The position numbers and the translations under genes were made by a program. From positions 26,982-90,981 of the forward strand of contig VXPQ01000032.1 in NCBI GenBank assembly GCA_009839485.1: a DNA stretch of 64,000 nucleotides. The letters are read 5' to 3'. Positions 151 to 37,400 of this stretch are shown here, one piece after another. Every line of letters starts with the position of its first letter. The first letter of the stretch is position 1. The stretch comes from Bacteroidetes bacterium SB0662_bin_6 (lineage in GTDB: Bacteria; Bacteroidota; Rhodothermia; Rhodothermales; VXPQ01). The notes beneath the pieces were generated by a model that searched no databases, was not told where the DNA came from, and saw only the letters and a program-made list of their open reading frames with translations.

Positions 151-231
151 AATGGTCAGAACTCTATGGCTCGTTGATCGAAATACCGTTAAAGGGAGAT
201 GAAGCGGATAAAACCCGGCGGGGCCAGTCGA

Positions 232-1812: not shown

Positions 1813-2036
1813 GATCACAGGGCTGGTTTGGAACGCATGAAATATAGGATATTCGAAGAAATACGATATCGCTCGATACCCATCCCGGTACAGGGTAAAG
1901 GGATCATGCCCCTTGCCGATACGTAGCATGCTGGTTCCATGACAAATGTCGCTCTGAGAGAAAGTATGCGGCATCTTCCACGCCATTCGCAAACCGGCAC
2001 GCCACGGCGCTCCGTTCCCCACCCTCTTCCGCAACG

Positions 2037-6379: not shown

Positions 6380-7361
6380 GTCTCTCGATACACGCCCCCT
6401 CGGATATACCGGAGAACAACTTACCGGCGTCGGCCTCGGCACCTGGGCCATCGGCGGCGGCGACTGGCAATACGGATGGGGGCGCCAGGATGACCGGGAC
6501 TCCATCGCCGCCATCCGCCGTGCGCTCGATGTGGGCATCAACTGGATAGACACAGCCCGCATCTACGGCCTCGGACATTCCGAAAAGATCGTGGGGGAGG
6601 CCATTGCAGGCCGCCGGGACGAGGTTTTTCTGGCCACGAAATGTGGACGCCTATGGAACGACGACGGCGCCATCTACGGAAGCCTGAAGGCCGCCGATGT
6701 ACGCATGGAATGCGAATCGAGCCTGAAACGCCTCAAAACGGACGTGATCGACCTGTACCAGATTCACTGGCCCGATCCTCTCGGAGAAATCGAGGAAGGA
6801 TGGACCGAAATCGCAAAATTGGTCGAGGAGGGCAAGATCCGCTATGCCGGCGTATCCAACTTCACGGTGGAACACCTGCGGGCCGTGCAGACCATTCACC
6901 CGGTGGCGTCACTCCAGCCGCCCTACAGTATGTTGCGGCGCGGCGTCGAGGATGCCCTGTTGCCGTATTGCGCCGAAAACAACATCGGCGTGATTGTCTA
7001 CAGCCCCATGGTATGCGGTCTTCTGACCGGTAAATTCTCCAAAGCCCACCTTGCCGGGCTGCCTGCAAACGACTGGCGGCACGGGAATGTCGAGTTCCGG
7101 GCGCCGGCCTTCGAGGCGAATCTTACCCTGGTCGATGGCCTGAAACCGATCGCCGAGCGCAACGATCTGACGCTTTCTCAACTGGCCATCGCATGGGTGC
7201 TCCGGCGACCCGAGGTGACCTCCGCAATCGTGGGCGCCCGGAAACCGGACCAGATCGAGGAAACCGCCCGGGCAGGCAACGCAGCGCTTTCAGAAAACGA
7301 CGTGCACGCCATAGAAAACCTGCTGGCGCAACGGCAGGAAACGATCGCAGCGGCGGCCTGA
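6378..7361 (+). CDS. Aldo/keto reductase
   Basis: GLGTWAIGG...LDVGINWIDTARIYG...LYQIHWPD pattern of AKR family proteins. Confidence 0.9.
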   Translation: MSLDTRPLGYTGEQLTGVGLGTWAIGGGDWQYGWGRQDDRDSIAAIRRALDVGINWIDTARIYGLGHSEKIVGEAIAGRRDEVFLATKCGRLWNDDGAIYGSLKAADVRMECESSLKRLKTDVIDLYQIHWPDPLGEIEEGWTEIAKLVEEGKIRYAGVSNFTVEHLRAVQTIHPVASLQPPYSMLRRGVEDALLPYCAENNIGVIVYSPMVCGLLTGKFSKAHLAGLPANDWRHGNVEFRAPAFEANLTLVDGLKPIAERNDLTLSQLAIAWVLRRPEVTSAIVGARKPDQIEETARAGNAALSENDVHAIENLLAQRQETIAAAA

Positions 7362-7415
7362 TTCCAGGCGGATCGCGACTCCATCCGCCCGAGGTCTGCG
7401 CGCCGACCGGACAGG

Positions 7416-8846
7416 CTACCCTTCTTGCGGAACCGGCAATCCCAACTGGTCGGCAGCATCGAGAATCAGCGCATGAGCGCGTTCCGGCGTTTCCGCTTCG
7501 GCATAGACGCGGAGCAACGGCTCTGTCCCCGAAGGCCGTACCAGCAGCCAGCCCCCTTCGACATGGTGCTTGAACCCGTCGAAAGGATCCACCCGCAGCA
7601 CGGCAGAGCCTGCAATCGCTTCCGGCCCGTCGCCCTTCCGGAGCCGCTCCAATATGCCTGCCTTTTTCGCATCGGTGGTGCGAAAATCAATGCGGCGGTA
7701 GGCTTGTGCGCCGAACTCGTCGTGTAACTCCGCTACAAGTTCCGACAGTTGTTTGCCCCGTTGCGCCATCATCTGCATCACAAGCAGACCAATGTACAGA
7801 CCGTCCCGATCCGGAATATGCCCCTGTGCGGCAATGCCCCCTGATTCCTCACCTCCCAGAAGCACATCCCCCTTCACGATATGCCCGGCAATGTACTTGA
7901 AACCGATCCGGGTCGTCTCGACGGGAAGCCCGTATGCTTCCGCCATGCGATCGATGATCGAGGTGCTTGAAAAGGCTTTGACAACCCGGCCCGACATCCC
8001 AAGATCCTTGTGAAGATATCTGACGAGCAACGCCAGGAGGGTATGCGAATCCACAAACCTTCCCCGTTCGTCAAAGAGGGCCACCCGGTCCGCATCTCCG
8101 TCGTTGGCAATGCCCGCAGCGCATCCCTCGGCGACAACAGCCTCGGAAAGCATTTCCAGATTGCACTCGATCGGTTCCGGCGGCTGCCCTCCGAACCCCG
8201 GATTGTGTGTACTCCGCAACGCCGCCACCTGCCCGGCGCCGAGCAATTCGGTGAAAACGCCCTGCCCGGCGCCGAACATGGCGTCGTGTGCGACACGCAG
8301 ACCGGAAGCGCGGATCGCCTTGATATCAAGGCGGCTCCTGAGGCAATCCAGATAGCCTGTCGTGAAATCCTGCGCTATAATTCCTCCGCTTCTCCGCAAC
8401 ATATCCAACGGCTTCGGAGCAGGCAGAATATCATCGTCGGCAGGTATCCGGGCCTCTACCTCAGCGATGCCGTCCGGCAGCAGGGGTCCGCCGAAATCCG
8501 CCTTCAATTTGAACCCGTTATATTCGGGCGGATTATGACTGGCCGTAATGACGATACCGGCCGCACACCCGAATTCCCGTGTAGCCCAGCTTACGGCGGG
8601 AGTAGGTACGAACGATTCCGGCAACAGCACCTCGATGCCCGCCGAGGCCAGTACGCGGGCGGCGTATTCCGCGAAGGAACGTCCGAGAAACCGCGTATCG
8701 TACCCGACCACGACCTTTGGGGCTGCAGGGGATTGTGCAAGAACCCATTCGGCAGTCGCATGGGCCACTCTGTGCAGATTGCGGAACGTGAAGTCCTCTC
8801 CGATCACGGCGCGCCAGCCGTCTGTTCCGAAACGAATATCCGCCAT
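7416..8846 (-). CDS. Alpha-D-phosphohexomutase (phosphoglucomutase/phosphomannomutase family)
   Basis: The real start MADIRFGTDGWRA is at 8846. Active-site loop TASHNPPEYNGFK. The track ORF (to 9416) is an Arg/Gly-rich artefactual extension that overlaps recN. Confidence 0.9.
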   Translation of the reverse strand: MADIRFGTDGWRAVIGEDFTFRNLHRVAHATAEWVLAQSPAAPKVVVGYDTRFLGRSFAEYAARVLASAGIEVLLPESFVPTPAVSWATREFGCAAGIVITASHNPPEYNGFKLKADFGGPLLPDGIAEVEARIPADDDILPAPKPLDMLRRSGGIIAQDFTTGYLDCLRSRLDIKAIRASGLRVAHDAMFGAGQGVFTELLGAGQVAALRSTHNPGFGGQPPEPIECNLEMLSEAVVAEGCAAGIANDGDADRVALFDERGRFVDSHTLLALLVRYLHKDLGMSGRVVKAFSSTSIIDRMAEAYGLPVETTRIGFKYIAGHIVKGDVLLGGEESGGIAAQGHIPDRDGLYIGLLVMQMMAQRGKQLSELVAELHDEFGAQAYRRIDFRTTDAKKAGILERLRKGDGPEAIAGSAVLRVDPFDGFKHHVEGGWLLVRPSGTEPLLRVYAEAETPERAHALILDAADQLGLPVPQEG

Positions 8847-10555
8847 TATGCCCCTCCCTTGCGGCTGGCTTCCATTAAATCCTGTGCGCTTTGCAGCGCC
8901 GCATCCGTAACATCGGCCCCGGCCATCAGTCCGGCCAGATGTTCTGCCCGCTGATTTTCGACCAGTCGCCGTATGCGCGTTTTCGTACGATCCCCTTCTA
9001 CATATTTCTCGACCACAAAGTGCGTATCCCCTTGCACCGCAATCTGGGGCAAATGGGTAATCGCGACAATCTGATGGTTTGCGGCCAGCACGTGCAGGCT
9101 TTGCCCTACCTTGCTGGCTACCGCTCCTGAAATGCCTGTGTCGATCTCGTCGAACACCAGAATCGGGAACGCCTCGCTTCGCGCCAGTACGGTCTTCAAA
9201 GCCAGCATGATGCGGCTGATTTCCCCGCCGGAAGCCACACGGGCAAGCGGCCGCAACGCTTCCCCCCTGTTCGTCGAGATGTAAAACTCGACGCGATCCA
9301 TGCCCGAGGCATGCGCCGCCATGCGCCGATCCCCGGCAAGAATCCAGCCCTCGGGGTCCTCGTCCACCGAAAACCGGACCTCGAACCGGCAATCGACCAT
9401 GCCGAGTTTGCTGCACTCCTCCTCCACTGCTTCCCGGATAGCATCGGCCACCTCCTGGCGCCGGGCGCTCAGGCGTACGGCGGCTCCCGACAAAGCCTCC
9501 TGTGTCGTCGTTATACGATTCGCCAGGGCATCGAGCGCTTCGTCGAAACGCTCTGCCTCGTCTCGGGCCTCACCGATCCTGCGCCGGTGTTCAAGAACCG
9601 CTTCCAGCGTACCTCCGTATTTCCGGGCCAGTCCCCGTATATCGACGAGCCGGGTTCTGATTTCTTCGAGCCGCTCCGGGTCGAACGCCGCCTGCTCACC
9701 ATACTGCTTCAGAAACGAAGACGTCTCCGCCGTGACGATACAGGCGGAATCGATCTCGCCAAGTATTTCCTCGAAACGGAGATCGATCTCCGCCAGTTCG
9801 CGCAGTTCGTCGCGTACGGCAACCAGTTGGTCGTGGATGGAATCCCCGCCTTCATACAAGGCGGAACTCAGCCGGACGGATGCCTCGTGCAGACGTTCCG
9901 CATGCTCCAGCACCCGCCGCTCGTTTTCGAGAAGTTCTTCTTCCCCTTCCCGGGGCGATATCCGATCGATCTCCTCGATCTGAAACGCATGGAGCGCCCG
10001 CTTTTCCTCCATATCGCGCTGCCGGGCCGTCAGCACGTCCCGTTCGGCAAGCAGCGCCGAGAAACTTCGGAAATGATCCGTGTATGATTCGCACGCCTCT
10101 CCGAGCCGTCCAAAATCATCCAGCAGACCGATATGCGTGGAAACATTCAGCAGCGACTGATGCTCATGCTGCCCATGCAAATCGATGAGGCGGGAGGCAA
10201 CGGCTCGCATTGCCTGTAGCGTAGCGGGGGAGTCATTGATGAAGCCGCGGCTATACGACGGCGTGATTTCACGGCGCAGGATAATCACCGGGGCCGGATC
10301 CACCGCATATTCCTGAAGCAAAGACGCCACGGACGGATCGTCCGCCTGGTCGAACATCCCCTCTATTACCGCCTTTGCAGCCCCGGATCGGATGGCGGAA
10401 GGCGATGTCCGCTCTCCCAGAATCGCCTGCAGCGCCCCGATCAGAATGGATTTGCCGGCGCCCGTCTCACCCGTAATGACCGTAAGCCCCGCATCGAACT
10501 CGACACGGAGCTCCTCGATGAGTGCGTAATCGCGGACGTAAAGAGACTTCAGCAA
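8846..10555 (-). CDS. recN: DNA repair protein RecN
   Basis: N-terminus MLKSLYVRDYALIEEL...GETGAGKS (Walker A), long coiled-coil middle, C-terminal SGGEISRIMLALK signature. The stop shares 1 nt with the downstream ATG (TAATG). Confidence 0.95.
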   Translation of the reverse strand: MLKSLYVRDYALIEELRVEFDAGLTVITGETGAGKSILIGALQAILGERTSPSAIRSGAAKAVIEGMFDQADDPSVASLLQEYAVDPAPVIILRREITPSYSRGFINDSPATLQAMRAVASRLIDLHGQHEHQSLLNVSTHIGLLDDFGRLGEACESYTDHFRSFSALLAERDVLTARQRDMEEKRALHAFQIEEIDRISPREGEEELLENERRVLEHAERLHEASVRLSSALYEGGDSIHDQLVAVRDELRELAEIDLRFEEILGEIDSACIVTAETSSFLKQYGEQAAFDPERLEEIRTRLVDIRGLARKYGGTLEAVLEHRRRIGEARDEAERFDEALDALANRITTTQEALSGAAVRLSARRQEVADAIREAVEEECSKLGMVDCRFEVRFSVDEDPEGWILAGDRRMAAHASGMDRVEFYISTNRGEALRPLARVASGGEISRIMLALKTVLARSEAFPILVFDEIDTGISGAVASKVGQSLHVLAANHQIVAITHLPQIAVQGDTHFVVEKYVEGDRTKTRIRRLVENQRAEHLAGLMAGADVTDAALQSAQDLMEASRKGGA

Positions 10556-22004: not shown

Positions 22005-22059
22005 AGTTAACGAATCAGCTTCAACCGGAAATGTTGTTCATTGTCTGCCGGATGCATCG

Positions 22060-22130
22060 TTGCCCGGGGAGGACTCGAACCTCCACATACGGCTCCAAAG
22101 GCCGCTGTCCTGCCATTAGACGACCGGGCA
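22060..22130 (-). tRNA. tRNA-Gln (anticodon UUG)
   Basis: Manual cloverleaf. Acceptor UGCCCGG/CCGGGCA with the U1-A72 pair. D-stem GUCU/GGAC. Anticodon stem GCGGC/GCCGU with loop CUUUGGA. T-arm GGAGG-UUCGAGU-CCUCC. No encoded CCA. Confidence 0.9.
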
Positions 22131-22294
22131 AGAAGTCGGAAACAAGGGAATGAAAATTATCGCGCACATGCGGCCTAATCAACGACCGCTGCCCACAGTG
22201 GTTTCTGCAACAGATGGACGAATTGGATCATATAACGGAATATGGGGTTCAGCAGTCGTGTTTTCGTCCTGTTTCTTCATTCCCACGGCATTGC

Positions 22295-22960
22295 ATGCTC
22301 AGTCAGGCCGTTGAAGATTACATCAAGGCCATTTACCGGATCCGGCAAAGCGGGCAACCGGCGTCCACCAGTGACATTGCCCGGGCCCTGAACGTCTCCG
22401 CCGCATCCGTCACGAACATGGCCAAACGGCTGGCGCAACTCGGTCTGGCAGAGTACGAATCGTACCAAGGCGTCCGGCTCACGGAGACGGGAAACAAGGT
22501 CGCTCTTGAAATCATCCGCCACCACCGCTTGCTCGAACTGTATCTGCGCAATGTGATGGGTTATCCCTGGGACAAGGTGCACGAAGAGGCGGAGTTGCTC
22601 GAACATCATATTTCCGAAGAATTCGAGCGCAAGATCGATGAAATGCTGGGGCATCCGACCCACGATCCGCATGGAGATCCCATTCCAACGCGCGAAGGCG
22701 AAATAGCCGAACGCAACACGAATCCCCTCGCCGCTGTGGAGCCCGGAACCCATGTCACGATCGAACGCGTGTCCGACGAAGATCCCAAATTACTGGATCA
22801 CCTCGAAAGCCTGGGGCTGTTGCCCGGCGCTGCGCTCGAAGTCATCGGGAAAGAGCCTTTCGAGGGACCCCTGAAGATCCGCCTATGCGATCGGGAGCAT
22901 ATTCTCGGATACCAGCTCGCCAACCATATTTTTGTGGACGTTTCGACCGAAAAGACCTGA
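22295..22960 (+). CDS. DtxR/MntR-family metal-dependent transcriptional repressor
   Basis: MLSQAVEDYIKAIYRI start. wHTH region DIARALNVSAASVTNMAKRL. Metal-binding region HHRLLELYL...HEEAE..EH. C-terminal SH3/FeoA-like domain. Start moved to 22295. Confidence 0.85.
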   Translation: MLSQAVEDYIKAIYRIRQSGQPASTSDIARALNVSAASVTNMAKRLAQLGLAEYESYQGVRLTETGNKVALEIIRHHRLLELYLRNVMGYPWDKVHEEAELLEHHISEEFERKIDEMLGHPTHDPHGDPIPTREGEIAERNTNPLAAVEPGTHVTIERVSDEDPKLLDHLESLGLLPGAALEVIGKEPFEGPLKIRLCDREHILGYQLANHIFVDVSTEKT

Positions 22961-24740: not shown

Positions 24741-25088
24741 AACAAACTAATGGTAGACCGCCTTTCCTGTAAAGTTTCCTTGAAGATGCGTTTTTTCGGA
24801 GATTATGTACGTACGGGGGCTATATCCGCCCAGGCCATTCATGTCGTCTCGCGCTCCACCCCCCTTATACCTGGTCGTGTTAGGGCCTGTTAGCACTATA
24901 CAGCGATGCTCTGTTCCGTCAGGCACGGGGTCAATCAAGGCGTGAGGAGTGAAGTTTGGTGGTTCCAAATGAGCGACGAGCAACGAAGAGTGACCCCGTG
25001 ACCGGCGGAACCCGAAGGGCGGGGCCTATTTTCCCGCCATGCGGCGTTGCCGCTCGCTTATGTGGCTGGCCACACTGCGCTTGCGCGC
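24741..25088 (-). other. About 350 nt non-coding, strongly self-complementary region downstream of the P450 gene (candidate 3'UTR or ncRNA)
   Basis: No credible ORF. Perfect inverted repeats: CACGGGGTCA 24924-33 / TGACCCCGTG 24991-25000; GGCGGG 25018-23 / CCCGCC 25033-38; GCGGC 25041-45 / GCCGC 25049-53. Contains a copy of the intergenic motif at 24880-99. Confidence 0.25.
24880..24899 (+). repeat. Intergenic motif copy b (TTAGGGCCTGTTAGCACTAT)
   Basis: Lies inside the 24741-25088 non-coding region. Similarity to the reconstructed copy d extends about 15 nt further (CACTATaCAGCGatGCT). Confidence 0.6.
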
Positions 25089-27131
25089 TCAGATCGGGTT
25101 CCTGATTTGAGCAACCCGGAATTTCAACTTTTTGTTGGGGGCAGATGTCGGAAACGGATTGATTCCGAGCTTGTAGTCTGCGGGCGCCACTTCCAGTTTC
25201 AGGTGGTACGCGATGAGCAGGACATTGACCGCCATCTGAAGTTCCACCCAGCGGCTTCCAAGACACATGTGCGTGCCGAGGCCATAGGGAGCGTAGGCGC
25301 CCGGCGTCGTATGCTCGGATCGCTCCGGCAGATAACGGTCTATGTCGAATTCCAGGGGGTCCTTGAACAATTCTTCGGAGTAGTGCGGCGCCGTCTGGCA
25401 AATCAATAACACCGTCTTGGCCGGTATCTGGTAGCCGTTCACGATGCACTCGTTCATAACCATTCTCAACTGCCAGGGAATCACCGGATGCACACGCAAG
25501 GACTCCATGTAGAGGCGGGCCGTGGCGTCGATGGCGTCGTGAGTGAAATCCTCCGGACCCGGCTCGCGCCCGTTCCCGAAAAGCGCCTCGGCTTCTTTAC
25601 GGATCTTCTCGTGCAAATCCGGGTCGCGAATCATGGAGTAAACCGTAAAAGCAAGCCCGCTTCCGAGATATATACTGGCGACCATCGACGCAACGAACGG
25701 AAAAGTGAGGTCCGTTTCCGGCAGGAACTGCGGATCGCTCTTGTGCAGTCCGAGGATTGCATCCGCAAGATCCGGTGGCTTGCCCTTCCTCTGTCCCGGC
25801 GTGTGCGATGTGGTGATCGATTCCTGGAACTCCCGGACGCGCTTGCTGTACCGTTTCATTTTCGGTGTCCGCAACATGAATTTCGGCAAGGCGCCCTGCA
25901 CCTGCGTCACCAGCGCCCGATGTTCATATTCAAGCAATTCGTCGACGTAATGGCTGCAATCCACCCCCATCGTGAGGTGCGAGATTTGACTGCTGATGTG
26001 ATTCTGGAACTCCTTGGTGGCGCGGAGCACGTCGCCTTCGCTCCACCGACTCAGCGATTGCCGGCAGCGGTGGACCAACTCAGGTAACCGTCGTGCAAGC
26101 GCGGAACGGGAATAGGCGCTCTTCAACTCCTTACGCATCCTGTAGTGTTCAGCCCCATCCATCCCCGGCAGCGTTCGGGATGCGCCGAACGCGCTCTCCA
26201 GATCCTTGATGTAATCCTTCGAGCGAAGATAGAACCGCCCGTGTTTGTTCACCCACTGATTGGTATCCGGGCCCATCAGGGCGATTATGCGTGACTTACG
26301 CATCTTGAAGGGCAATTCGAGGACCGGCCCGTGGTTCCGGAAAATGCCGTACATCGCCTTGGGAATATTGCCCGAGCGAAAGTCACGCTGCCGCAGGATA
26401 TCAATGTACCGGAGCTTCGGGATGGGTTTGGCCTGAATAACGCGGCGGGTCCTCGGTGTGGCGGTGCTGTCTCTCACCGCAGTCGCAACCGTCCGCCCTA
26501 TCAGATCCAGCTTGGCGACAAGCTCGATGCGCTCGAGCCTGTCCTCGTAGTCTTCCGGCTCGAGCAACAGCTTGAAACCGTCGCACGTATGCATCAAGGC
26601 TATAAGAATGGCATCGCGCGGATCCGGAATGCTGTCGTCGTTCAGGATGACGCTCAAAATTCTCGCTTTGGCCTCCTGGCGAACCTTCAGATCCGAAGCA
26701 GGATAGGTGCCCGACCGGGAAACGGAGCGCGAAAGCCCCCAGAATCCCCCGCTCTCGTAGTCGAGAATTTTCCTCTCCACCAGACGATCGAGCGTGGCCG
26801 TAACGATTTCGTCGGAACGACCCGTGTTTCGCTCGATCCAGTACTGCGTGTCCTGGGTCTCCCCGGATTCGGCGATTTCCTTGAGCGTCGGGTCGAGCAG
26901 GTTGTCTCCCGTGGGGTGGGAATCAACCAGATACAGCGCCTTCAGGTCGGTGTCGATCCGATCCTCCAGTGCAAGATCGGCAAGTACGGCTCCCGCCATA
27001 ACACAGGAGAAGTTCCAGCCTGGAACCATTTCCAGATACCCGCTCTGTTCGTCGAGCATCAGAAGAATCAGTTCTTCCGCAAGACGTATCGGAAACTGTA
27101 CCGACGTACTCTCCATGCCAAACCTTGTCAA
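25089..27131 (-). CDS. Fusion protein: N-terminal GOLPH3/GPP34-like domain plus C-terminal cytochrome P450
   Basis: aa ~14-220 (IRLAEELILLMLDEQSGYL...AGAVLADLALEDRI...LDRLVERKIL...DPRDAILIALMHTCDG) fits the GPP34 family pattern. The C-terminal part has ExxR (ESLR), a PERF-like DRYLPER, and the Cys-heme loop YGLGTHMCLG. Confidence 0.85.
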   Translation of the reverse strand: MTRFGMESTSVQFPIRLAEELILLMLDEQSGYLEMVPGWNFSCVMAGAVLADLALEDRIDTDLKALYLVDSHPTGDNLLDPTLKEIAESGETQDTQYWIERNTGRSDEIVTATLDRLVERKILDYESGGFWGLSRSVSRSGTYPASDLKVRQEAKARILSVILNDDSIPDPRDAILIALMHTCDGFKLLLEPEDYEDRLERIELVAKLDLIGRTVATAVRDSTATPRTRRVIQAKPIPKLRYIDILRQRDFRSGNIPKAMYGIFRNHGPVLELPFKMRKSRIIALMGPDTNQWVNKHGRFYLRSKDYIKDLESAFGASRTLPGMDGAEHYRMRKELKSAYSRSALARRLPELVHRCRQSLSRWSEGDVLRATKEFQNHISSQISHLTMGVDCSHYVDELLEYEHRALVTQVQGALPKFMLRTPKMKRYSKRVREFQESITTSHTPGQRKGKPPDLADAILGLHKSDPQFLPETDLTFPFVASMVASIYLGSGLAFTVYSMIRDPDLHEKIRKEAEALFGNGREPGPEDFTHDAIDATARLYMESLRVHPVIPWQLRMVMNECIVNGYQIPAKTVLLICQTAPHYSEELFKDPLEFDIDRYLPERSEHTTPGAYAPYGLGTHMCLGSRWVELQMAVNVLLIAYHLKLEVAPADYKLGINPFPTSAPNKKLKFRVAQIRNPI

Positions 27132-27254: not shown

Positions 27255-28664
27255 TTACGCCTTCCTGAGACGCCAACCGTACATCAGGCGCCCGTAAAAA
27301 TTGAACCACTTCCTCGCTTCCGCATCCTGAAACGGGTAATCCGCCCCGATCTGTCTCGCCGTAACCAGGCCGGACACGAAACAGGTCTCCTGACTGTTGA
27401 TCAGCGTGTGCGCGCCGCAGTGCCACGTTCGCCTCCTGCCCTGAACATGGCGAAACAAATGGACCAGAAAGGCCACATGGCGCACATCGTGTACTATGTG
27501 CTGAAACCACCACTTCCTGATGATCTTGCCTTCGTCGATGCGGCTGATCGGATTGTAGGTCACCAGGCACGGCTTATCCGAGCGGCCCACCCAGGGCTGC
27601 TGATTGTGCATGATGTAGGTGATTTCGTAGTTGTCGGGTCGTACGCCGTACTGCGCGATGTGATTGCTCCGGGTGGAAAGTGCCCTGACGTCGTTGTCCG
27701 GTAGAATCGAGGCGTCCGAATGGACGACCGTATGGTTGTGCAGTTCGCTTTCGTAACGTATCGAAGACAGCAGGTAGCTCTCAAGAAACGTCGGTTCATC
27801 CAGCATCATCAGCGTTTGATTCGCATTGCACGCGAACACCACGTCATCGAACGTTTCCCGCTTACCGTCCCGGTCCTCTACGACGACCTCGGATTGGCGA
27901 CGGTACACCTTCCGCACCGGCCGGTTAAGGTATATCTTGTCCTGAAAGGCGGCCGCCATCTTCTCATAGATGCGCCGCGTGCCCTGATCCCATGTTTGCA
28001 TCGGCGTCGCGGTTTCGATATCGAAGAATTCCAGATACCGGCAAAACAGCGATGCAGGCATATCGAACACGTTCGTGGCCATCAGGAAGTTGACGAACAT
28101 GGGCTTCAGGATCTTGTACCTGAAATCTCCGGAAAACCTGCCCAGGTTGAGCACCGCACCCATACTGACGTAATTGAGCGGGTTAAGCGCATTGAGTAAT
28201 CTGGACCTGGTACGGTTCAGCCGCCCAAACCACTGTGCACGTCTCAGAAGCTTCTGGAATTTCTTGATCTCCGGTTGCAACTGCTTCCTGATATCGGAAT
28301 CAAAATCGTGCGCATAGATGCCGCCGCGATACTTCACGCTGTAGCTGAATCGGGTATCGATCAACTCGATGCCGTGTTGCTGCATGAAGAGAAGGATATG
28401 ATGGTATACCGAGGGAATGCACGCGGTGACGGAAATGTCGAATGGAATCGACGTGCCATCGTCCTGCGGCATATCGGCCGTAATGGCGTTGCCTCCGACC
28501 TGAGCCTGCGCTTCGAACACGCGGAAATCGAATCGATCGGGCTGCTTGTGCAATGCCCAGGCCGTCCCCAATCCCGACACGCCTGCGCCGATAATAGCAA
28601 CCCTTCTGGGCGACGCGCCTCGCTCCGCTGACCGATCCTCTTCGGGTGGTCCGGATATGTTCAT
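27255..28664 (-). CDS. FAD-dependent oxidoreductase, COG2907-like (amine-oxidase/desaturase fold)
   Basis: Rossmann motif VAIIGAGVSGLGTAWAL...FEAQAQVGGN. C-terminal QGRRRTWHCGAH...SGL resembles the COG2907 family C-terminus. Confidence 0.8.
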   Translation of the reverse strand: MNISGPPEEDRSAERGASPRRVAIIGAGVSGLGTAWALHKQPDRFDFRVFEAQAQVGGNAITADMPQDDGTSIPFDISVTACIPSVYHHILLFMQQHGIELIDTRFSYSVKYRGGIYAHDFDSDIRKQLQPEIKKFQKLLRRAQWFGRLNRTRSRLLNALNPLNYVSMGAVLNLGRFSGDFRYKILKPMFVNFLMATNVFDMPASLFCRYLEFFDIETATPMQTWDQGTRRIYEKMAAAFQDKIYLNRPVRKVYRRQSEVVVEDRDGKRETFDDVVFACNANQTLMMLDEPTFLESYLLSSIRYESELHNHTVVHSDASILPDNDVRALSTRSNHIAQYGVRPDNYEITYIMHNQQPWVGRSDKPCLVTYNPISRIDEGKIIRKWWFQHIVHDVRHVAFLVHLFRHVQGRRRTWHCGAHTLINSQETCFVSGLVTARQIGADYPFQDAEARKWFNFYGRLMYGWRLRKA

Positions 28665-28689: not shown

Positions 28690-29793
28690 TCATGAGGATG
28701 TCCGCGCCTCATTTTGCTCCGCGCGCTCAGCGCTACGATCGGGTTGCCCGTCTTTACCGGAAGCCCGAGAATCCGGATAGAACTGTTTGCAATAGCGCCG
28801 ATACCTGCCGATATCGCCGTCAGCCCGACACAGTCTGGGATAGGGTACGTACCGTTTTCGCCCCCAGATAATCACATCCTGCAACACATCGTGCTTTTGA
28901 TAAGACAGAATGATGCTGTTCATTACCCTGGTGCGAAGACCCGGTGGAAGAAATCCCAGACCGACGATCGGACGTTTCGGTTTACGGATCTCGCGTATCT
29001 GACTGGCCAGGACCAGTTCGATATGCTTGCCGTCGACAGGAGTTGCGAGCACCCACAAACGCCCATGCATTTCAATGGATCGCTCGTGAATTTCCACGTA
29101 CGAATATCCCAATCCGAAGATGCGCGCGACAGCGGAGACATCCAGAACGATATCCCTTATCCCCATAACATTCTGGGTGCGTCTGAATTCAAACTTGCTC
29201 GTCAGACAAGCGCCGTCGATGCTTACCGGTTCAACCATGCGCGTATTGCCATAACCATGCACGTACTGCAGATGCAGGAAGTCCACAGAGTTCTCGGTGG
29301 TTTCCTGGGGGTGTCCCGGAAATCGAAGGGTCCGAAACCCCACTTCGCCCCAGTCTGCCCCGGCCACAGGCTCCTCGGGAAGGCTCCATTGCGGCGGCCG
29401 GCCGTCTATTCCCCACCACCCGAATACCATGCCGAGGATTTCCCGCGTTTCGAATACCTTCAGCCGCGCGGCCCTGGGCGGCGGGGCAAAAGGAGTGGCG
29501 ACACACTGGCCGCTTACATCGAACTCGAAGCCGTGAAACGGACAAACGAGACAACCGTCCCGTACCCGGCCACCGGCTTCGGGTCCCAGGTCGGACCCGA
29601 GGTGCGGACACACCGCCAGAGCCACGCAGATGCGGCCTGCGTCGTCGCACCACGCGACAATCTGTTCACCCAACCAGGTTTTTTCAATCAGTTTCGCTTT
29701 CAGTACGGATTGCCGGCTGGCAACGAAGTACCAACCCTCCGGAAACGGGGGAGGCGACGGGAGATTTTCTAACTCGACGCGTCTTGCTGGCAT
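28690..29793 (-). CDS. Rieske [2Fe-2S] non-heme-iron oxygenase, KshA/Neverland-like (alpha subunit only)
   Basis: Rieske motif CPHLGSDL...(x17)...CPFHGFEF. Mononuclear iron motif ENSVDFLHLQYVH (ExxxDxxHxxxxH). Start moved to 29793 (MPARRVELENL). Confidence 0.85.
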   Translation of the reverse strand: MPARRVELENLPSPPPFPEGWYFVASRQSVLKAKLIEKTWLGEQIVAWCDDAGRICVALAVCPHLGSDLGPEAGGRVRDGCLVCPFHGFEFDVSGQCVATPFAPPPRAARLKVFETREILGMVFGWWGIDGRPPQWSLPEEPVAGADWGEVGFRTLRFPGHPQETTENSVDFLHLQYVHGYGNTRMVEPVSIDGACLTSKFEFRRTQNVMGIRDIVLDVSAVARIFGLGYSYVEIHERSIEMHGRLWVLATPVDGKHIELVLASQIREIRKPKRPIVGLGFLPPGLRTRVMNSIILSYQKHDVLQDVIIWGRKRYVPYPRLCRADGDIGRYRRYCKQFYPDSRASGKDGQPDRSAERAEQNEARTSS

Positions 29794-29865
29794 CTTAACG
29801 GTGATATTGCGAATTGGCGCGCAGATAGATGTCCATAATAGTCCGGATTTGCGCAAAAGGGAGGC

Positions 29866-30840
29866 TCAGGACGCGGGCTCCGCCCCCCGGCCGGCCAGGA
29901 GATACAACACGGCCATACGTACGGCAACGCCGTTGGTCACCTGATCCAGAATGACGGCCCGTTCGTGATCCACCACATCGCCCGCCAACTCCACACCCCG
30001 GTTCACAGGCCCCGGGTGCATGATGCGAAGATCGGGATGACGTTCCATATGTTCGAGGGTGATGCCGAACCGCTCATGGTATTCCCGCACCCCGGGGAAA
30101 AGCATCGCTCCCTGTCGTTCAAGTTGTACGCGCAGCGCCATCGCCACGTCGCAACCCTCCAGCGCTTCGTCCAGACGGTCCGTCACCCGCACACCCATTT
30201 CCTCGACACCCACCGGAGTCATCGTGGCGGGTGCGCACAGCGTTACGTGGGCGCCCAGCGCCCGCAATCCGTATATATTGGAACGGGCCACGCGGCTGTG
30301 CGCAATATCCCCGATAATAGAAACGTTTCGTCCTTCAAGAGACGGGTGGATATCCGTCAGCGTAAGCAGATCCAGCAAAGCCTGGGTAGGATGTTCATGG
30401 GCGCCGTCTCCGGCATTGATTACCACGGCGTCCACGCAGCGCGTCAGAAAAACAGGCGCGCCCGGCGACCGGTGCCGAATCACGACCATGTCCACCTTCA
30501 TCGCCTCGATATTGCGGGCAGTGTCCTTGAGGGTTTCTCCCTTGGAGACCGACGAGCCGGAAACAGAGAAGTTGACCGTCTCCGCCGACAACCGTTTTTC
30601 GGCCAGTTCGAAGGAAATGCGCGTTCGCGTGGAAGGCTCGAAAAAAAGATTCACGACAGCCACGTCGCGCAATGTAGGGACGCGCCGAATAGGCCGATCC
30701 AGCACCGAGCGAAACTCCCGCGCCGTACGAAGAATAAGTTGTATTTCGTCTGCGTCGTACGTCGAAAGGCCAAGCAGATGCCGGTGTCTCAACGACTCCG
30801 GGGCAGACCGATCCTCCCGTGCTTCTTCGCGTGCGTGCAT
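29866..30840 (-). CDS. pyrB: Aspartate carbamoyltransferase catalytic subunit
   Basis: [21 protein letters not shown] and HPGPVNRG motifs. Confidence 0.95.
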
Positions 30841-31409: not shown

Positions 31410-31499
31410 ACCATATAAATTACGAGAAACGACACCTGTTTCCAATCCGTCTGACGTACCTTCGGTATAACGGCTGGTAAACCCACCCACTCATTCCAT

Positions 31500-32447
31500 T
31501 TGTTTCCCACGATGCCCACCGTACAGGATACTACCCTGAAATACCTCGATCCGGTAGTCGTATCCCGCCTGAAGAACATGGAGCTCCGGGCGCGAATGAT
31601 CGTCGAAGGATTTATTACGGGCATGCACAAGAGCCCGTATCATGGGTTCTCTGTAGAGTTCGCCGAACACCGGCCCTACATCGCCGGCGACGAGCCGCGA
31701 TACGTGGACTGGAAGGTCTATGGGAAGACGGACCGGCACTACGTCAAACGGTTCGAAGAGGAAACCAACCTGCGGCACTATGTGGCGCTCGATACCTCCG
31801 CATCGATGCGCTACCGGGCGCAGGCGCCTCTTTCCAAAATGGAATACGGCGCATACCTCGCGGCCGCACTGCACTATATCATGGTCAAGCAGCGCGATGC
31901 CACCGGACTGATTACGTTTGACGAGGAGATCCGCACCATCATGTCCCCGAGAAGCACAACATCCTGGCTGCGACGACTCCTTGTCAGACTGCAACATACC
32001 GTGGACAATCCGGCGCCGGAAAAGCGCACAGGCGCCGCCGATGCACTCAGCAAGATCGCCGAACGCATCGCGCGGCGTTCCCTCGTCGTGGTCATCACCG
32101 ATCTCTTCGAAAACATCGGGCGCCACGAAGACCTGCTCAAAGCGTTGCGTCACCTGCGTTACCGCGGACACGAAGCGCTCGTTTTTCATGTGCTCGAATC
32201 CGCTACCGAGCGCACGTTCGACTTTCCCGACGTGCCCATGATCTTTCGCGATATGGAAACCGGGGAGGAAATCTCCCTGCAACCGGCGCACATCCGCGAA
32301 AACTATCGGGAGGCTGCACAGTTCTTCGGAGACCGGTTTCGACGCCAGTGCCTCGAATACGACATCGATTTCGTGGAACTGAATACGGAACAATCGTACG
32401 ATACAGCTCTGCTGGCCTATCTGAACAAGCGAAAGAAGCTCGTCTGA
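31500..32447 (+). CDS. DUF58 (vWA-like, MoxR-associated family) protein
   Basis: GMHKSPYHGFSVEFAEHRPYIAGDEPRYVDWKVYGKTDR is the DUF58 hallmark region. Confidence 0.8.
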   Translation: MFPTMPTVQDTTLKYLDPVVVSRLKNMELRARMIVEGFITGMHKSPYHGFSVEFAEHRPYIAGDEPRYVDWKVYGKTDRHYVKRFEEETNLRHYVALDTSASMRYRAQAPLSKMEYGAYLAAALHYIMVKQRDATGLITFDEEIRTIMSPRSTTSWLRRLLVRLQHTVDNPAPEKRTGAADALSKIAERIARRSLVVVITDLFENIGRHEDLLKALRHLRYRGHEALVFHVLESATERTFDFPDVPMIFRDMETGEEISLQPAHIRENYREAAQFFGDRFRRQCLEYDIDFVELNTEQSYDTALLAYLNKRKKLV

Positions 32448-32457
32448 GCCATCTCCC

Positions 32458-33660
32458 ATGCGCGAACGTATACAAAAATTAAATGACGAACTGTTCGAGA
32501 AGATTGTAGATATCCGGCGTACGCTGCACCGGAACCCGGAATTGGCATACTCGGAGCGGGAAACCGCGAAACTGATAGCGAACACCCTTGAGCCGCTCGG
32601 TTTCGAAGTACAAACCGGCGTGGCGCGCACCGGCATCGTCGCCACGCTGCATGGCGGGCGATCCGGTCCGGCTCTTGCGCTGCGGGCCGACATGGACGCC
32701 CTGCCCATCCAGGAAGAGAACACCTTCGAGTTTGCCTCCGGGAACGACGGGGTCATGCACGCCTGCGGCCACGATGCACACACAGCCTCGCTGCTTGGCA
32801 CGGCAACCATCCTGCACAGACTGCGCGAGGAGCTTCCCGGCAGCATCCGCTTCCTGTTCCAGCCAAGCGAAGAAAAACTCCCGGGAGGCGCCCTTCCCAT
32901 GATCGAGGAAGGCGTACTTGGCGATGCGTTCGGCCCGGCGCCCGGGGCAATATTCGGACAACATGTGCACCCCGGCCTCGACGCCGGCAAAATCGGAGTT
33001 CGATCCGGGAGGTATATGGCCTCAGCGGACGAAATGCATATCAGAGTCGAGGGAAAAGGCGGTCATGCCGCTACGCCCCACCTTCTGGATACCGACCCTA
33101 CTCTTGTTGCCGCACACATCCTTGTGGCCCTGCAATCTGTCGTGAGCCGGTATTGTCCTCCTGATGTACCGAGTGTACTGACCATCGGACGATTCATAGC
33201 CGACGGCGCCACAAATGTGATTCCCTCCCAAGCCGTTCTCGAGGGTTCTTTCCGCTCGCTCGATGAAGATTGGCGTTTCGAGGCGCACGAACATATCCGC
33301 CGCATTGCGGAAACGACCGCGGAAGCACACGGCGCGCAGGTCAGCCTGGACATTTCCACAGGCTACCCGGTACTGCACAATGATCCCGAATCGGCGGAGT
33401 TTGTCCGGGATGCAGCGATCAGGTATGTGGGCGAGGACAACGTGGTCGATCTGGACGTGTGGTACGCCTCGGAGGATTTCGCCTGGTTTCTGCGGGAAGC
33501 GCCCGGGGCTTTTTACCGGTTCGGCACGCGGAACGAAGAAGAGAACATTGTGCATGGCCTCCATACGCCCCGGTTTACGATCGACGAAGAGGCCCTGCGC
33601 ATGGCCCCGGGTTTTATGGCGTATCTGGCCACGGAATACCTGACAGCACAGGCAGCATAG
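32458..33660 (+). CDS. M20D-family amidohydrolase (N-acyl-amino-acid amidohydrolase/hippuricase type)
   Basis: LHRNPELAYSERETA...LRADMDALP...MHACGHDAHT...FQPSEE pattern. Confidence 0.9.
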   Translation: MRERIQKLNDELFEKIVDIRRTLHRNPELAYSERETAKLIANTLEPLGFEVQTGVARTGIVATLHGGRSGPALALRADMDALPIQEENTFEFASGNDGVMHACGHDAHTASLLGTATILHRLREELPGSIRFLFQPSEEKLPGGALPMIEEGVLGDAFGPAPGAIFGQHVHPGLDAGKIGVRSGRYMASADEMHIRVEGKGGHAATPHLLDTDPTLVAAHILVALQSVVSRYCPPDVPSVLTIGRFIADGATNVIPSQAVLEGSFRSLDEDWRFEAHEHIRRIAETTAEAHGAQVSLDISTGYPVLHNDPESAEFVRDAAIRYVGEDNVVDLDVWYASEDFAWFLREAPGAFYRFGTRNEEENIVHGLHTPRFTIDEEALRMAPGFMAYLATEYLTAQAA

Positions 33661-35444: not shown

Positions 35445-37400
35445 CTACTCTGTCTCCTCCGGCGTACGCGATGCGAACACCCGGATCCCCCAGGCTTCAG
35501 GGTCATTGGGCGGACTGTCCTCGAAATCTCCGTAGGCATGCGAAAAATCGGTCATGAAATAGACCGTGTAGTCGCCCGGAGCCAGCGAAAGGGTCCCGAC
35601 AAACATCCGGTTGCGATCATCGCCGCCGGCAGGAATCGTATTCTGCCAGGTCATTTCCCAAACGGTCTCCCCGGTCTCCGTGTTTTCGATCCAGCCGTAA
35701 TCGTACTGCCCGCTCAGGGACACCTCGCCCACAGCCCGAATACGCAAGAACCCTTCCCCTTCGAAGGTAAACGGAGCCGAAAGGTGCTCCCTGTTACCAA
35801 GCCCGGTAAGATCGACAAGAGGAACGCCTGGCGCTCCCTCGCCGGGAAATGGCGCACGGCCCGCGGGCCGCGCGGGCGCCGCCAACGCAAAGACCGAATC
35901 TCCCTCCGAGTCCGGGACTTCAATGAATCCCTCCCTGTCCACCGTAAGCACCTCGATAGCGGATGAATTCATGTCCTCATCTACCTGGAACAGTGTGACG
36001 CCCCATCGTTCCGGATGGTCGGGTTCTCCATGCGACCACCCGTCGTACGAATGCGAATCGTCCGTTTGATAGGTCGCCGTGTATATGCCGGGCGGCAGAT
36101 CCAGAAAAGCCAACTCGCGCCGGTTGTTGCGGCCGCCCGCAGGCAAAGAGCGCTCCGGCGTCATTTCCCATACGACCCGCTCGGAGGGTCCGGCGGTAAT
36201 CGTTGCATAATCGTACCGGTCTTCGTCCCCCATTTCCCCCAGCGCATAGACGGCGATCCGGGCTGGCGCCCGTACGCGAAACCGCGCAATATGGCGTTCA
36301 CTGTCCCCCACGCGATCGATCCGGATGAACGGTTCCTGTTCCTCCCAGGGATCGACCGGCTGCACGGCTTCCGGCATAGTGGTGAACAACGAAACACCCC
36401 ACCCTGCCGGATCAAACGGGGGATTCCGCACCCAGTCCCCATAGTCCTGCCGCGGATCCGTCCGGAAAACCGCCCGGTACAGACCGGGCGACAGGGAAAC
36501 GGTCCCGTCGAACAGGCGGTTGACCTCCCATCCCCCGGCGGGTACGGTATTCTCGCGACGCATGTCCCACACCCGTTCCCCACTGGACACATCTTCGATC
36601 CAGCCATAATCCATCCGCTCCTCGCCTATTTCGCCCACCGCATACACATGCACCTCCGCCGTCCGGGTCACCCCAAACAGGTGCTCGGCGGTTTCCCGCC
36701 CCTCCATGGGCGCCGAAGTCCAAAGCAGTTCTTTCTCCCCGGGAAGAAACAGAGGGGAAGCCGAATCGAGAAGCACAGGAGCGGCGAGCGCATCTCCCAA
36801 TGGGCGCACAACCATCCGCCACTCGTCGGCGTCGTCGCGCCAGACATATCCATCGCCCACGGACAGATCGAACAGGCCATCCAGCAAGGATAATTCGAAA
36901 GAAGAACCATCCTCATTTCCGTACGAAGCGAAATACACGTCGTAGACGCCCGGCTGGAACGCTACGGTATCGGTAACGAGAGCCAGGGTGTTATCCCCTT
37001 TCCGCAAGGGCGCCGAATACATGCTCCAGACCACTGCACGGTCTTCCCGGCGCAAGACCCACCCATACGCAGCAAGGGAAATGCTGTCCGCCTGCTCTTC
37101 CGACTCGAACGACCCTGTGGCGTCGATCACAACGCGCACCGGCTGCTCGACGCGGAATGTTTCCTCCAGCAACAGACCGGGTTCAATGCCTGAATATACG
37201 ACCAGACCATCCGGGGGAGGGGCAGGCTGCATGACACGCCACAGCACAAGCAGTGTCAACACTGCGAGCAACAGCAACTCAAACCGTATAATACCGGGTC
37301 GTTTCACGAGGCCTGGGCGCCTGGCGCAAATGAATGAGGAAATACTTTTGAAGGAAATGTACGCAATGGACGTAACGAACCGTTTATGTCTACGTATCAA
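35445..37400 (-). CDS. Membrane-anchored hypothetical protein built of four tandem ~105-120 aa repeats
   Basis: N-terminal hydrophobic segment ELLLLAVLTLLVLW. Repeats share (V/A)GE...YDYGWIE..(T/S)GE.VWEM....(L/I/V)PAGG..NR......L.PG.Y.....TD.SH.YG.......P.DP..WG(V/I). No family recognised. Confidence 0.7.
   Translation of the reverse strand: MIRRHKRFVTSIAYISFKSISSFICARRPGLVKRPGIIRFELLLLAVLTLLVLWRVMQPAPPPDGLVVYSGIEPGLLLEETFRVEQPVRVVIDATGSFESEEQADSISLAAYGWVLRREDRAVVWSMYSAPLRKGDNTLALVTDTVAFQPGVYDVYFASYGNEDGSSFELSLLDGLFDLSVGDGYVWRDDADEWRMVVRPLGDALAAPVLLDSASPLFLPGEKELLWTSAPMEGRETAEHLFGVTRTAEVHVYAVGEIGEERMDYGWIEDVSSGERVWDMRRENTVPAGGWEVNRLFDGTVSLSPGLYRAVFRTDPRQDYGDWVRNPPFDPAGWGVSLFTTMPEAVQPVDPWEEQEPFIRIDRVGDSERHIARFRVRAPARIAVYALGEMGDEDRYDYATITAGPSERVVWEMTPERSLPAGGRNNRRELAFLDLPPGIYTATYQTDDSHSYDGWSHGEPDHPERWGVTLFQVDEDMNSSAIEVLTVDREGFIEVPDSEGDSVFALAAPARPAGRAPFPGEGAPGVPLVDLTGLGNREHLSAPFTFEGEGFLRIRAVGEVSLSGQYDYGWIENTETGETVWEMTWQNTIPAGGDDRNRMFVGTLSLAPGDYTVYFMTDFSHAYGDFEDSPPNDPEAWGIRVFASRTPEETE

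Follow-up and report, generated by a model that had tools for sequence, protein, structure and literature searches.

We analysed a stretch of 64,000 nucleotides from contig VXPQ01000032.1 of Bacteroidetes bacterium SB0662_bin_6 (hereafter the window), in which a single gene on the minus strand (25089-27131) joins a GPP34 domain, with the fold of the eukaryotic proteins GOLPH3 and Vps74, to a cytochrome P450. We found that this fusion gene travels across phyla together with genes for a KshA-type Rieske oxygenase, for a sterol-methyltransferase-family enzyme and/or for an RND efflux pump. Besides this gene neighbourhood, our data establish the domains of the protein, their fold and conservation, the loss of the pocket by which GOLPH3 binds phosphatidylinositol 4-phosphate (PI4P), and a change in a catalytic motif of the P450. 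We tentatively favour a reading, just short of an even balance, in which the product would be a cytoplasmic membrane-surface enzyme that tailors a sterol- or triterpenoid-like lipid, the GPP34 domain being a non-catalytic tether or adaptor.

Integrity of the fusion gene

The gene is an open reading frame (ORF) of 680 amino acids (aa) with a TTG start; it encodes both Pfam domains and has collinear homologues, whose own starts fall at about residues 6-15 of the window frame. No signal peptide or transmembrane (TM) segment was found in the protein. An initial annotation of the region had proposed a covalent fusion of GPP34 and P450, and in this it was correct: the frame is uninterrupted, and the span given for GPP34, 26472-27092, corresponds exactly to residues 14-220 of the minus-strand ORF. 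All the GPP34 peptides it had listed are present (LAEELILLMLDEQSGYL at residues 17-33, AGAVLADLALEDRI at 46-59, LDRLVERKILDYE at 114-126 and DPRDAILIALMHTCDG at 170-185), as are its P450 motifs ESLR (543-546), DRYLPER (598-604) and GLGTHMCLG (617-625). The profile search that it had suggested as a check placed PF05719 at residues 17-220 with E=1.1e-33; the score was 117 bits (cut-off 29.1), and the match spans positions 1-199 of the 201 in the profile. The match to PF00067 lies at residues 253-660, with E=1.7e-31 and a score of 110 bits (cut-off 22.8).

The same annotation had considered that a sequencing or assembly frameshift might have merged two separate genes. Both domains were found in a protein of about 673 aa in 120 of 120 90%-identity clusters among the matches listed, and when the representatives of 50%-identity clusters were searched exhaustively, about 45 proved to be full-length fusions, the most distant at roughly 25% identity. 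A collinear protein is encoded at 40 genome loci, many of them on single-contig chromosomes of 2.7-6.3 Mb from metagenome-assembled genomes (MAGs). Counts for the window's clade refer to 42 members, and those for the deep family to a 50-sequence alignment, which is approximate at that distance. Mean pairwise identity is 73% for the N-terminal domain and 71% for the P450 domain in the clade, and 37% and 36%, respectively, in the deep family. Because the fused clusters are collinear and the N-terminal domain is as conserved as the catalytic one, a frameshift or assembly artefact can be excluded; the fusion is real, conserved and old. The poorly modelled linker between the domains is all that could be cited for a merger of two genes, the chance of which is negligible given the uninterrupted frame, the conserved linker residues, the collinearity with well over 100 homologues in as many sequence clusters, the many complete long-read chromosomes and the independent report of the same architecture (PMC11706023).

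Variants with duplicated modules also occur in the family, that is, a GPP34-GPP34-P450 protein of 872 aa (P0127) and a tandem GPP34-GPP34 protein of 444 aa (P0178). Another unusual P450 fusion, P0270 (711 aa), is an unfused relative of the P450 domain with two C-terminal cyclic-nucleotide-binding domains (PF00027).

A published family of sponge symbionts

The architecture is already known. It was described under the name GPP34_L by Ferreira et al. (Microbiome 2025; PMC11706023), and the window ORF is a genuine member of that family. Their count was 656 GPP34_L proteins across 780 MAGs of sponge symbionts, and free-living relatives had none; the family is monophyletic, is carried by 96% of sponge Rhodothermia and is expressed in Aplysina aerophoba. 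They also recorded rare GPP34-Rieske and GPP34-ABC fusions, and found that unfused GPP34 genes usually lie within five genes of a P450. In their functional proposal, GPP34 proteins act as effectors that are secreted, bind PI4P and prevent the phagosome from maturing; the long-form flanks, the PI4P-pocket residues, charge, secretion signals and P450 motifs were not analysed in that study. Beyond it, our searches found no publication that deals with this gene cluster or with the function of GPP34 in bacteria, and public records label proteins of the family only as 'cytochrome P450'.

The initial annotation had called the architecture unusual, a view it would have given up for one that proved common and already annotated. 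The claim holds with respect to free-living relatives, from which the fusion is absent; it fails as a claim of novelty, since the fusion is abundant and already published in sponge symbionts (PMC11706023).

The window is syntenic with the Rhodothermales MAG OZ220746.1, at about 92-94% DNA identity. The closest relatives come from sponge MAG sets (APA, SB066x, RHO and COS bins), the prefixes APA and SB0661 being tied to A. aerophoba and I. ramosa (PMC11706023); the host of the window genome itself is not stated. The family spreads horizontally among sponge-symbiotic bacteria.

At one related locus of an Azotimanducaceae MAG, L041 (3203-4174 and 8061-9169; loci are numbered L001 onwards), matches to the fusion protein are limited to its GPP34 part, and a Rieske-like ORF holds a stretch of 53 aa resembling the C-terminal end of the P450. 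The fusion gene may have decayed or been rearranged here, which fits the secondary loss of the P450 domain suggested previously (PMC11706023).

Fold, pocket and charge of the GPP34 domain

By sequence, the N-terminal domain alone matched human GOLPH3 (3KN1, E=1.7e-6) and yeast Vps74 among solved structures, and a profile built from 42 family members matched GOLPH3 at E=4.5e-16. An AlphaFold2 model of residues 1-235, computed from a deep alignment, reached a mean predicted local confidence (pLDDT) of 91.7 and a predicted template-modelling score (pTM) of 0.89. When this model was compared with the Protein Data Bank (PDB) by Foldseek, only GOLPH3 and Vps74 structures were significant (9QPQ, 3KN1, 2ZIH, 2ZII and 4TU3; TM scores of 0.59-0.69, probability 1.0), the next match having E=0.4, and the core signature motifs of the fold are conserved. 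The structural comparison suggested in the initial annotation thus bears out its assignment of the domain. In a full-length AlphaFold2 model from a shallow alignment, pLDDT was 27-65 in the N-terminal domain and low at residues 224-232.

In GOLPH3, the PI4P pocket is formed by W81, R90, R171 and R174, and the double mutants W81A/R90A and R171A/R174A abolish PI4P binding (Wood et al., PMC2806290). The Trp is kept in 42 of 42 members of the window's clade (W39), where the equivalent of R90 is Ala in 41 of 42, that of R171 is Asp or Glu in all 42, and that of R174 is Val or Ile in 41 of 42. Judged from these alignments, the GOLPH3-type pocket is lost, the Trp being the sole survivor of the four residues in the clade. 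In the deep family, Arg is found at the R90 equivalent in 0 of 50 sequences; at the R174 equivalent, by the approximate alignment, about two-thirds of the distant members have Arg or Lys, which is not the case for the window's clade.

The charge of the domain is also far from that of GOLPH3. Computed over the whole domain, the median isoelectric point (pI) is 4.46 and the net charge -16 (range -23 to -9), as opposed to a pI of 8.4 and a net charge of +2 for the GOLPH3 core (residues 57-268). PI4P effectors of this class have an electropositive membrane-binding surface, whereas the whole-domain charge here is acidic; the P450 domain that follows is basic (pI 9.1). Targeting to lipid headgroups, one of the roles considered in the initial annotation, is therefore not supported, given the replacement of the three pocket Arg in 41-42 of 42 clade members and a net charge of about -16.

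A second feature of GOLPH3 is kept. At the position of its beta3/beta4 hairpin, the model predicts a beta-hairpin at residues 123-133 (26733-26765, minus strand), with DSSP strands at 123-126 and 130-133. Its residues are highly conserved in the clade, with G128, F130 and L133 in 42 of 42 members, G129 in 41 and W131 in 40. The equivalent hairpin of GOLPH3 enters the bilayer and mediates oligomerisation, and an acidic groove of GOLPH3 binds the basic tails of client enzymes (PMC2806290, PMC13408441). The client-site residue D247 of GOLPH3 aligns with D184, in a column that is mostly Gly in the family.

The two domains are separated by a basic, proline-rich linker (residues 221-240; 26412-26471, minus strand), delimited by column counts and by the low pLDDT at residues 224-232. 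Its conserved residues are P226, R229, R230, K235, P236, I237, P238 and K239.

An atypical P450 domain

The P450 domain occupies residues 253-660 (25152-26375, minus strand) and is identified by PF00067, by PDB sequence matches and by Foldseek as an E-class P450. The signatures YGLGTHMCLG, E543-x-x-R546 and DRYLPER are present and invariant in the family, and within the heme-thiolate loop GLGTHMCLG (25257-25283, minus strand) the ligand Cys623 as well as G617 and H621 are invariant in two family alignments. The sequences closest to it in the PDB are those of CYP51 (the Methylococcus fusion), CYP170A1 and CYP46A1, with a best E of 1.6e-20, and Foldseek on the full-length model returned only E-class P450s in general (TMt about 0.75), with no clue to the substrate. 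Assignment to CYP51 or to another named P450 family was rejected: all NCBIfam matches were below threshold and to unrelated P450 models, the CYP51 match was of partial length (E=1.6e-20), and the CYP51 I-helix signature AG(Q/H)HTS does not occur in the window protein.

The I-helix departs from the canonical pattern. Based on sequence alignment to CYP51 and on a predicted helix at residues 476-502, the motif A485-S-I-Y488-L489-G490 (25662-25679, minus strand) lies opposite AGHHTS of CYP51 and replaces the canonical A-G-x-[D/E]-T-[T/S]. Y488 is found in 42 of 42 and L489 in 40 of 42 clade members, and Tyr followed by Leu or Ile in all 12 sequences that are at least 59% identical to the window protein. 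The loss of the Asp-Thr pair is derived, because 30 of the 50 sequences of the deep alignment keep the Thr, most of them within the canonical G-x-D/E-T; by the same alignments, the P450 domain of the window is a derived and atypical member of its own family. Loss of the I-helix Thr is typical of P450s with substrate-assisted or peroxide-dependent chemistry, or of those that rearrange peroxides. With the Asp-Thr pair replaced by an invariant Tyr and by Leu or Ile, the chemistry of the window's clade may differ from ordinary hydroxylation.

Partner genes across related loci

For a survey of partners, all ORFs of the related loci were clustered and the representatives of each partner were then searched by tblastn within 10 kb of the fusion gene at 43 loci. 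At least one recurrent partner was found in 41 of the 43, the two exceptions being contigs that end beside the fusion gene. The partners were an RND adaptor (MFP; 30 of 43 loci), an RND permease (29), a KshA-type Rieske oxygenase (24), a NodT outer-membrane factor (OMF; 23), a methyltransferase with a Sterol_MT_C domain (SMT; 16) and a flavin amine-oxidase-family protein (6). They occur in Rhodothermales, Acidobacteriota, Gammaproteobacteria and one alphaproteobacterial MAG. The SMT genes of L033, L019 and L037 score 59.6-61.7 bits with PF08498 (Sterol_MT_C), against a cut-off of 21.7; these neighbours, seen at related loci, thus have the domain of sterol C-24 methyltransferases, an activity that is predicted for them.

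At L043, every partner lies within about 16 kb. At L040, from a Vicinamibacteraceae MAG whose fusion protein is 45% identical to that of the window, the stop of the Rieske gene (6913-8004) and the start of the fusion gene (8001-10016) overlap by 4 bp, and the two genes may be translationally coupled. A TetR gene precedes the pump genes at L046. In Rhodothermales, the site between pyrB and an HSDR_N gene holds a variable cargo: genes for RND, Rieske, oxidase and fusion protein at L002 and L004, those for Rieske, oxidase and fusion protein in the window, and an RND gene plus the fusion gene, with no match to Rieske or oxidase, at L024. The RND permease stands between pyrB and the Rieske gene at L002 (2090-5278) and L004, and between pyrB and the fusion gene at L024.

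Directly 3' of the fusion gene at two loci (L043, 12065-13249; L044, 5038-6183), we noted remnants of an ACR_tran permease (199-213 aa) and, in the same stretches, remnants of a squalene/oxidosqualene cyclase (SQHop_cyclase_C, 163-173 aa). These remnants suggest past recombination between the island and a triterpenoid-cyclase locus. Small genes without a Pfam match (296, 98 and 117 aa) separate the RND permease from the Rieske gene at L046 (15375-16571) and L043 (17965-18318), and they could be unrecognised components of the island.

The cassette in the window and its surroundings

In the window, the fusion gene is the last of five genes on the same strand, after pyrR, pyrB, a Rieske/KshA_C oxygenase gene and a flavin amine-oxidase-family gene; the gaps within the cassette are 25 bp and 123 bp. 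The Rieske, flavin oxidase and fusion genes are set as an insertion between pyrB on one side and housekeeping genes on the other. The Rieske non-heme iron oxygenase (28690-29856, minus strand) measures 388 aa as the longest ORF, and its homologues align from about residue 8-22. It combines a Rieske [2Fe-2S] domain (PF00355, 54.6 bits) with a KshA_C domain (PF19298, 85.9 bits), the combination that marks KshA-type oxygenases, and its nearest solved structure is the 3-ketosteroid 9alpha-hydroxylase KshA, matched over nearly its full length at E=5.8e-23; a steroid substrate is predicted. The flavin amine-oxidase-family oxidoreductase (27255-28664, minus strand; 469 aa) matches PF01593 and NAD_binding_8, and its gene adjoins the Rieske gene also at L001-L004 and L043. 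Among solved structures, the enzyme is closest to LkcE (4e-22) and to 2b9w, an entry named 'putative aminooxidase', which we take to be the polyunsaturated-fatty-acid isomerase of P. acnes.

Of the island partners, the window retains only the Rieske and flavin oxidase genes beside the fusion gene. The spacing between pyrB and the Rieske gene is about 10 bp (29856-29866), and the pump gene of the sister genomes is missing there. Among the twenty largest ORFs checked, the remainder of the window is housekeeping (prs, L25, H+-PPase, SecA, tRNA synthetases and RelA).

A scan of the region for promoters and terminators gave counts not above those of shuffled sequence. It includes a weak terminator-like hairpin about 80 nt past the stop codon of the fusion gene (24992-25012, minus strand), of a kind no more numerous than in shuffled sequence, and a weak promoter-like site at 24895-24922, in the stretch downstream of the fusion gene. 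The intergenic region 24811-25075 does not align with the otherwise syntenic L003, being about 265 bp long as compared with about 90 bp. Rfam and tRNA scans of the window returned just two tRNAs, both unrelated to the fusion gene. One of them, tRNA-Gln (22059-22130), lies beside an ORF (22214-22960, plus strand) for a DtxR-type iron-dependent repressor with a C-terminal FeoA domain, whose nearness to a heme and iron-sulfur island is probably coincidental. Three long ORFs had no Pfam match at E<=1e-5 (31491-32990, minus strand, 499 aa; 35445-37400, minus strand, 651 aa; 199-1926, plus strand, 575 aa), the one of 499 aa being kept beside pyrR in sister Rhodothermales loci at 60-87% identity.

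Possible function of the fusion protein

From these observations we infer a substrate class, a cellular location and a role for the GPP34 domain. We are highly confident of the identity and context of the gene and moderately so of the substrate class, and have little confidence in the precise role assigned to GPP34. The fusion protein would stay within the bacterial cell and work on the cytoplasmic side of the membrane, as the catalyst of a single oxidative step in the tailoring of a lipid that resembles a sterol or triterpenoid and comes from the host or from the symbiont itself. It would work alongside the KshA-type oxygenase, the SMT where present and, in some lineages, the flavoenzyme, leaving the handling of substrate or product to a tripartite RND pump under TetR control. 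The nearest solved sequences of the P450 domain, namely CYP51, CYP170A1 and CYP46A1, act on sterols or terpenoids, and horizontally acquired sterol genes, along with functional SMTs, are known from sponge symbionts that belong to the same phyla (PMC9531527, PMC10070321).

The GPP34 domain, which co-evolves with the P450, sits in place of the N-terminal membrane anchor of eukaryote-type P450s and probably tethers or orients the enzyme at the membrane or on a partner, using the conserved hydrophobic beta-hairpin and not the PI4P pocket. A built-in membrane-targeting or presenting module is plausible because the hairpin is conserved, the module stands at the position of the anchor of microsomal P450s, and the partners act on lipids. 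Moreover, GPP34, Rieske oxygenase and P450 seem to function as a unit because GPP34-Rieske fusions exist, unfused GPP34 genes lie beside a P450, and Rieske and P450 genes are adjacent; the GPP34-Rieske fusions and the GPP34 genes next to P450s are evidence of the Rosetta-stone type for joint working (PMC11706023).

Several points weigh against this reading. The function of every family member is predicted. The P450 domain resembles CYP51 and CYP46A1 only remotely (E about 1e-20), and E-class P450s are not told apart by Foldseek. The SMT was found at just 16 of the 43 loci, and the most constant partner, the pump, is also compatible with a detoxification of non-sterol compounds. In the 64-kb window, tblastn detected no SMT, RND, MFP or OMF gene, so that the sterol link rests on the related loci. 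As a C-4 demethylase SdmA, the Rieske neighbour was rejected (24 bits against a cut-off of 600). No ferredoxin or reductase was detected at any locus by Cys-motif scans of small ORFs at 48 loci and in precomputed Pfam tables. Bacterial membranes being anionic, so acidic a domain is no obvious candidate for binding to them, and the full-length AlphaFold2 model yielded no usable inter-domain geometry.

The proposal of Ferreira et al. (2025), in which secreted GPP34 effectors, including the long form, bind PI4P on the host phagosome and block its maturation while the role of the P450 stays undefined, is favoured by the distribution of the family, which has been reported from sponge (and coral) symbionts alone, is lacking in free-living relatives and shows expression in situ. 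The genuinely GOLPH3-like fold, the conservation of W39 and of the hairpin in the window's clade, and the Arg or Lys at the R174 equivalent in about two-thirds of the deep-branching fusion members speak for it as well. Nevertheless, in 41-42 of 42 clade members R90, R171 and R174 have given way to Ala, Asp/Glu and Val/Ile, at positions where mutants of GOLPH3 lose PI4P binding; Arg at the R90 equivalent is absent even from all 50 deep-family sequences, and the domain is acidic (pI 4.5, charge -16) where the GOLPH3 core is basic (pI 8.4, +2). There is no signal peptide, the neighbours are cytoplasmic enzymes requiring S-adenosylmethionine, iron-sulfur clusters or flavin, together with an efflux pump, and not secretion systems, and a heme enzyme that depends on electron donors is unlikely to be exported. 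We therefore regard an effector role as quite improbable. A detoxification and efflux island is unlikely too, though less so: the P450 and the Rieske oxygenase would oxidise non-sterol sponge defence metabolites, such as terpenoids, brominated aromatics or unusual fatty acids, for expulsion by the RND pump, and GPP34 would be an adaptor that holds the enzyme near the pump or membrane. In its favour, RND, MFP and OMF genes are the most constant neighbours (RND and MFP at 29-30 of 43 loci) and a TetR regulator is found at L046; the flavoenzyme is closest to LkcE and 2b9w and not to sterol enzymes, the fatty-acid-binding CYP184A1 and CYP102 are among the proteins structurally close to the P450, and the cargo at one chromosomal site varies between related genomes, as it does in accessory islands. 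Against it stand the SMT-family gene with its Sterol_MT_C domain at 16 of 43 loci, often between the pump genes, the steroid-active best solved homologue of the Rieske oxygenase, and the triterpene-cyclase remnant at L043 and L044.

Alternatively, GPP34 could be a regulatory or oligomerisation module, its acidic domain docking in cis on the basic P450 or on the linker, and so gating access of the substrate or redox partner, or building multimers through the hairpin as in Vps74 tetramers. The charges are indeed complementary (pI 4.5 for the N-terminal domain and 9.1 for the P450, with a polybasic linker between them), the negatively charged groove of GOLPH3 binds basic tails and its hairpin mediates oligomerisation, and tandem GPP34-GPP34 and GPP34-GPP34-P450 variants exist. 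We consider such a role very improbable: the column of D184, aligned with D247 of GOLPH3, is Gly in most family members, the full-length model gave no inter-domain geometry, and the GPP34 fusions to Rieske and ABC-transporter domains would be left unexplained.

The preferred reading, a lipid-tailoring enzyme held at the cytoplasmic membrane surface, can be extended to a more specific proposal, which we put forward as doubtful. GPP34_L would then be no host-manipulating effector but the hallmark of an island, horizontally mobile and devoted to the tailoring and export of lipids, that comprises the GPP34-P450, the KshA-type Rieske oxygenase, the sterol methyltransferase and the RND pump and lets sponge symbionts of many phyla modify sterols or triterpenoids. 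Its GPP34 domain would replace, in a bacterial and PI4P-independent form, the membrane anchor of eukaryotic P450s, and the Tyr-Leu clade would depart from canonical P450 chemistry, with peroxide-dependent reactions or rearrangements as examples. In that case, the unusual sterol inventories of demosponges, which lie behind the sponge-biomarker debate, would owe something to the symbionts.

As a published hallmark of sponge symbiosis, the architecture adds nothing new, and its interest lies in function. The sole published functional proposal depends on PI4P binding and is weakened by the dismantled pocket, the acidic charge and the lack of a signal peptide. An island of oxygenase, SMT and efflux genes recurring across phyla turns a vague 'eukaryote-like effector' into a concrete biochemical hypothesis, which ties the most widespread gene family specific to sponge symbionts to bacterial sterol modification and bears on the interpretation of sponge sterol biomarkers such as 24-isopropylcholestane. 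If it is true, a bacterial GOLPH3-fold domain would have its first assigned role, and a P450 would be at hand in which a peripheral-membrane domain replaces the TM anchor.

Comparison with known systems

With respect to GPP34_L as published, the window protein has the same two-domain architecture and family length (about 673 aa) and the same taxon (Rhodothermia), and there is no structural difference; the pocket, charge, secretion and flank results presented here fit the proposed PI4P-effector function poorly (PMC11706023). With GOLPH3 and Vps74 (3KN1, 2ZIH, 9QPQ) it shares the fold (TM about 0.65-0.69), the pocket Trp, the equivalent hairpin and the core motifs EE..LL, PTGD.LLD, W.IE and DP. 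It differs from them in the loss of three pocket Arg and in being strongly acidic where they are basic, W161 of GOLPH3 falls in a segment without a counterpart here, and the domain is joined covalently to an enzyme, in a bacterium where PI4P is not expected.

The best sequence and structure matches of the catalytic domain are the anchored E-class P450s CYP51 and CYP46A1 and the CYP51-ferredoxin of Methylococcus capsulatus (6MCW, 7SNM). A basic, proline-rich segment ahead of the catalytic domain is common to these enzymes and the fusion protein, and the substrates of the anchored enzymes are lipids (sterols). The relation is remote (best E=1.6e-20), no NCBIfam P450 model scoring above its cut-off, and the N-terminal module of the fusion is a soluble GOLPH3 fold and not a TM helix. 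In contrast to the CYP51-ferredoxin fusion, the fused partner is not a redox domain, and the I-helix reads A-S-I-Y-L-G instead of A-G-(Q/H)-H-T-S.

The sterol clusters of sponge symbionts consist of ERG24-CYP51-LSS, flanked by SMT, and some of them have sdmA/sdmB (Kelly et al. 2022, PMC9531527; Brown et al. 2023, PMC10070321); neither of these studies mentions GPP34. The island described here is found in the same hosts and phyla, spreads horizontally as they do and shares with them an SMT-family gene, and a cyclase remnant adjoins the fusion gene at L043 and L044. Where those clusters have SdmA and CYP51, the island has a KshA-type Rieske oxygenase and the GPP34-P450 fusion, accompanied by an RND pump.

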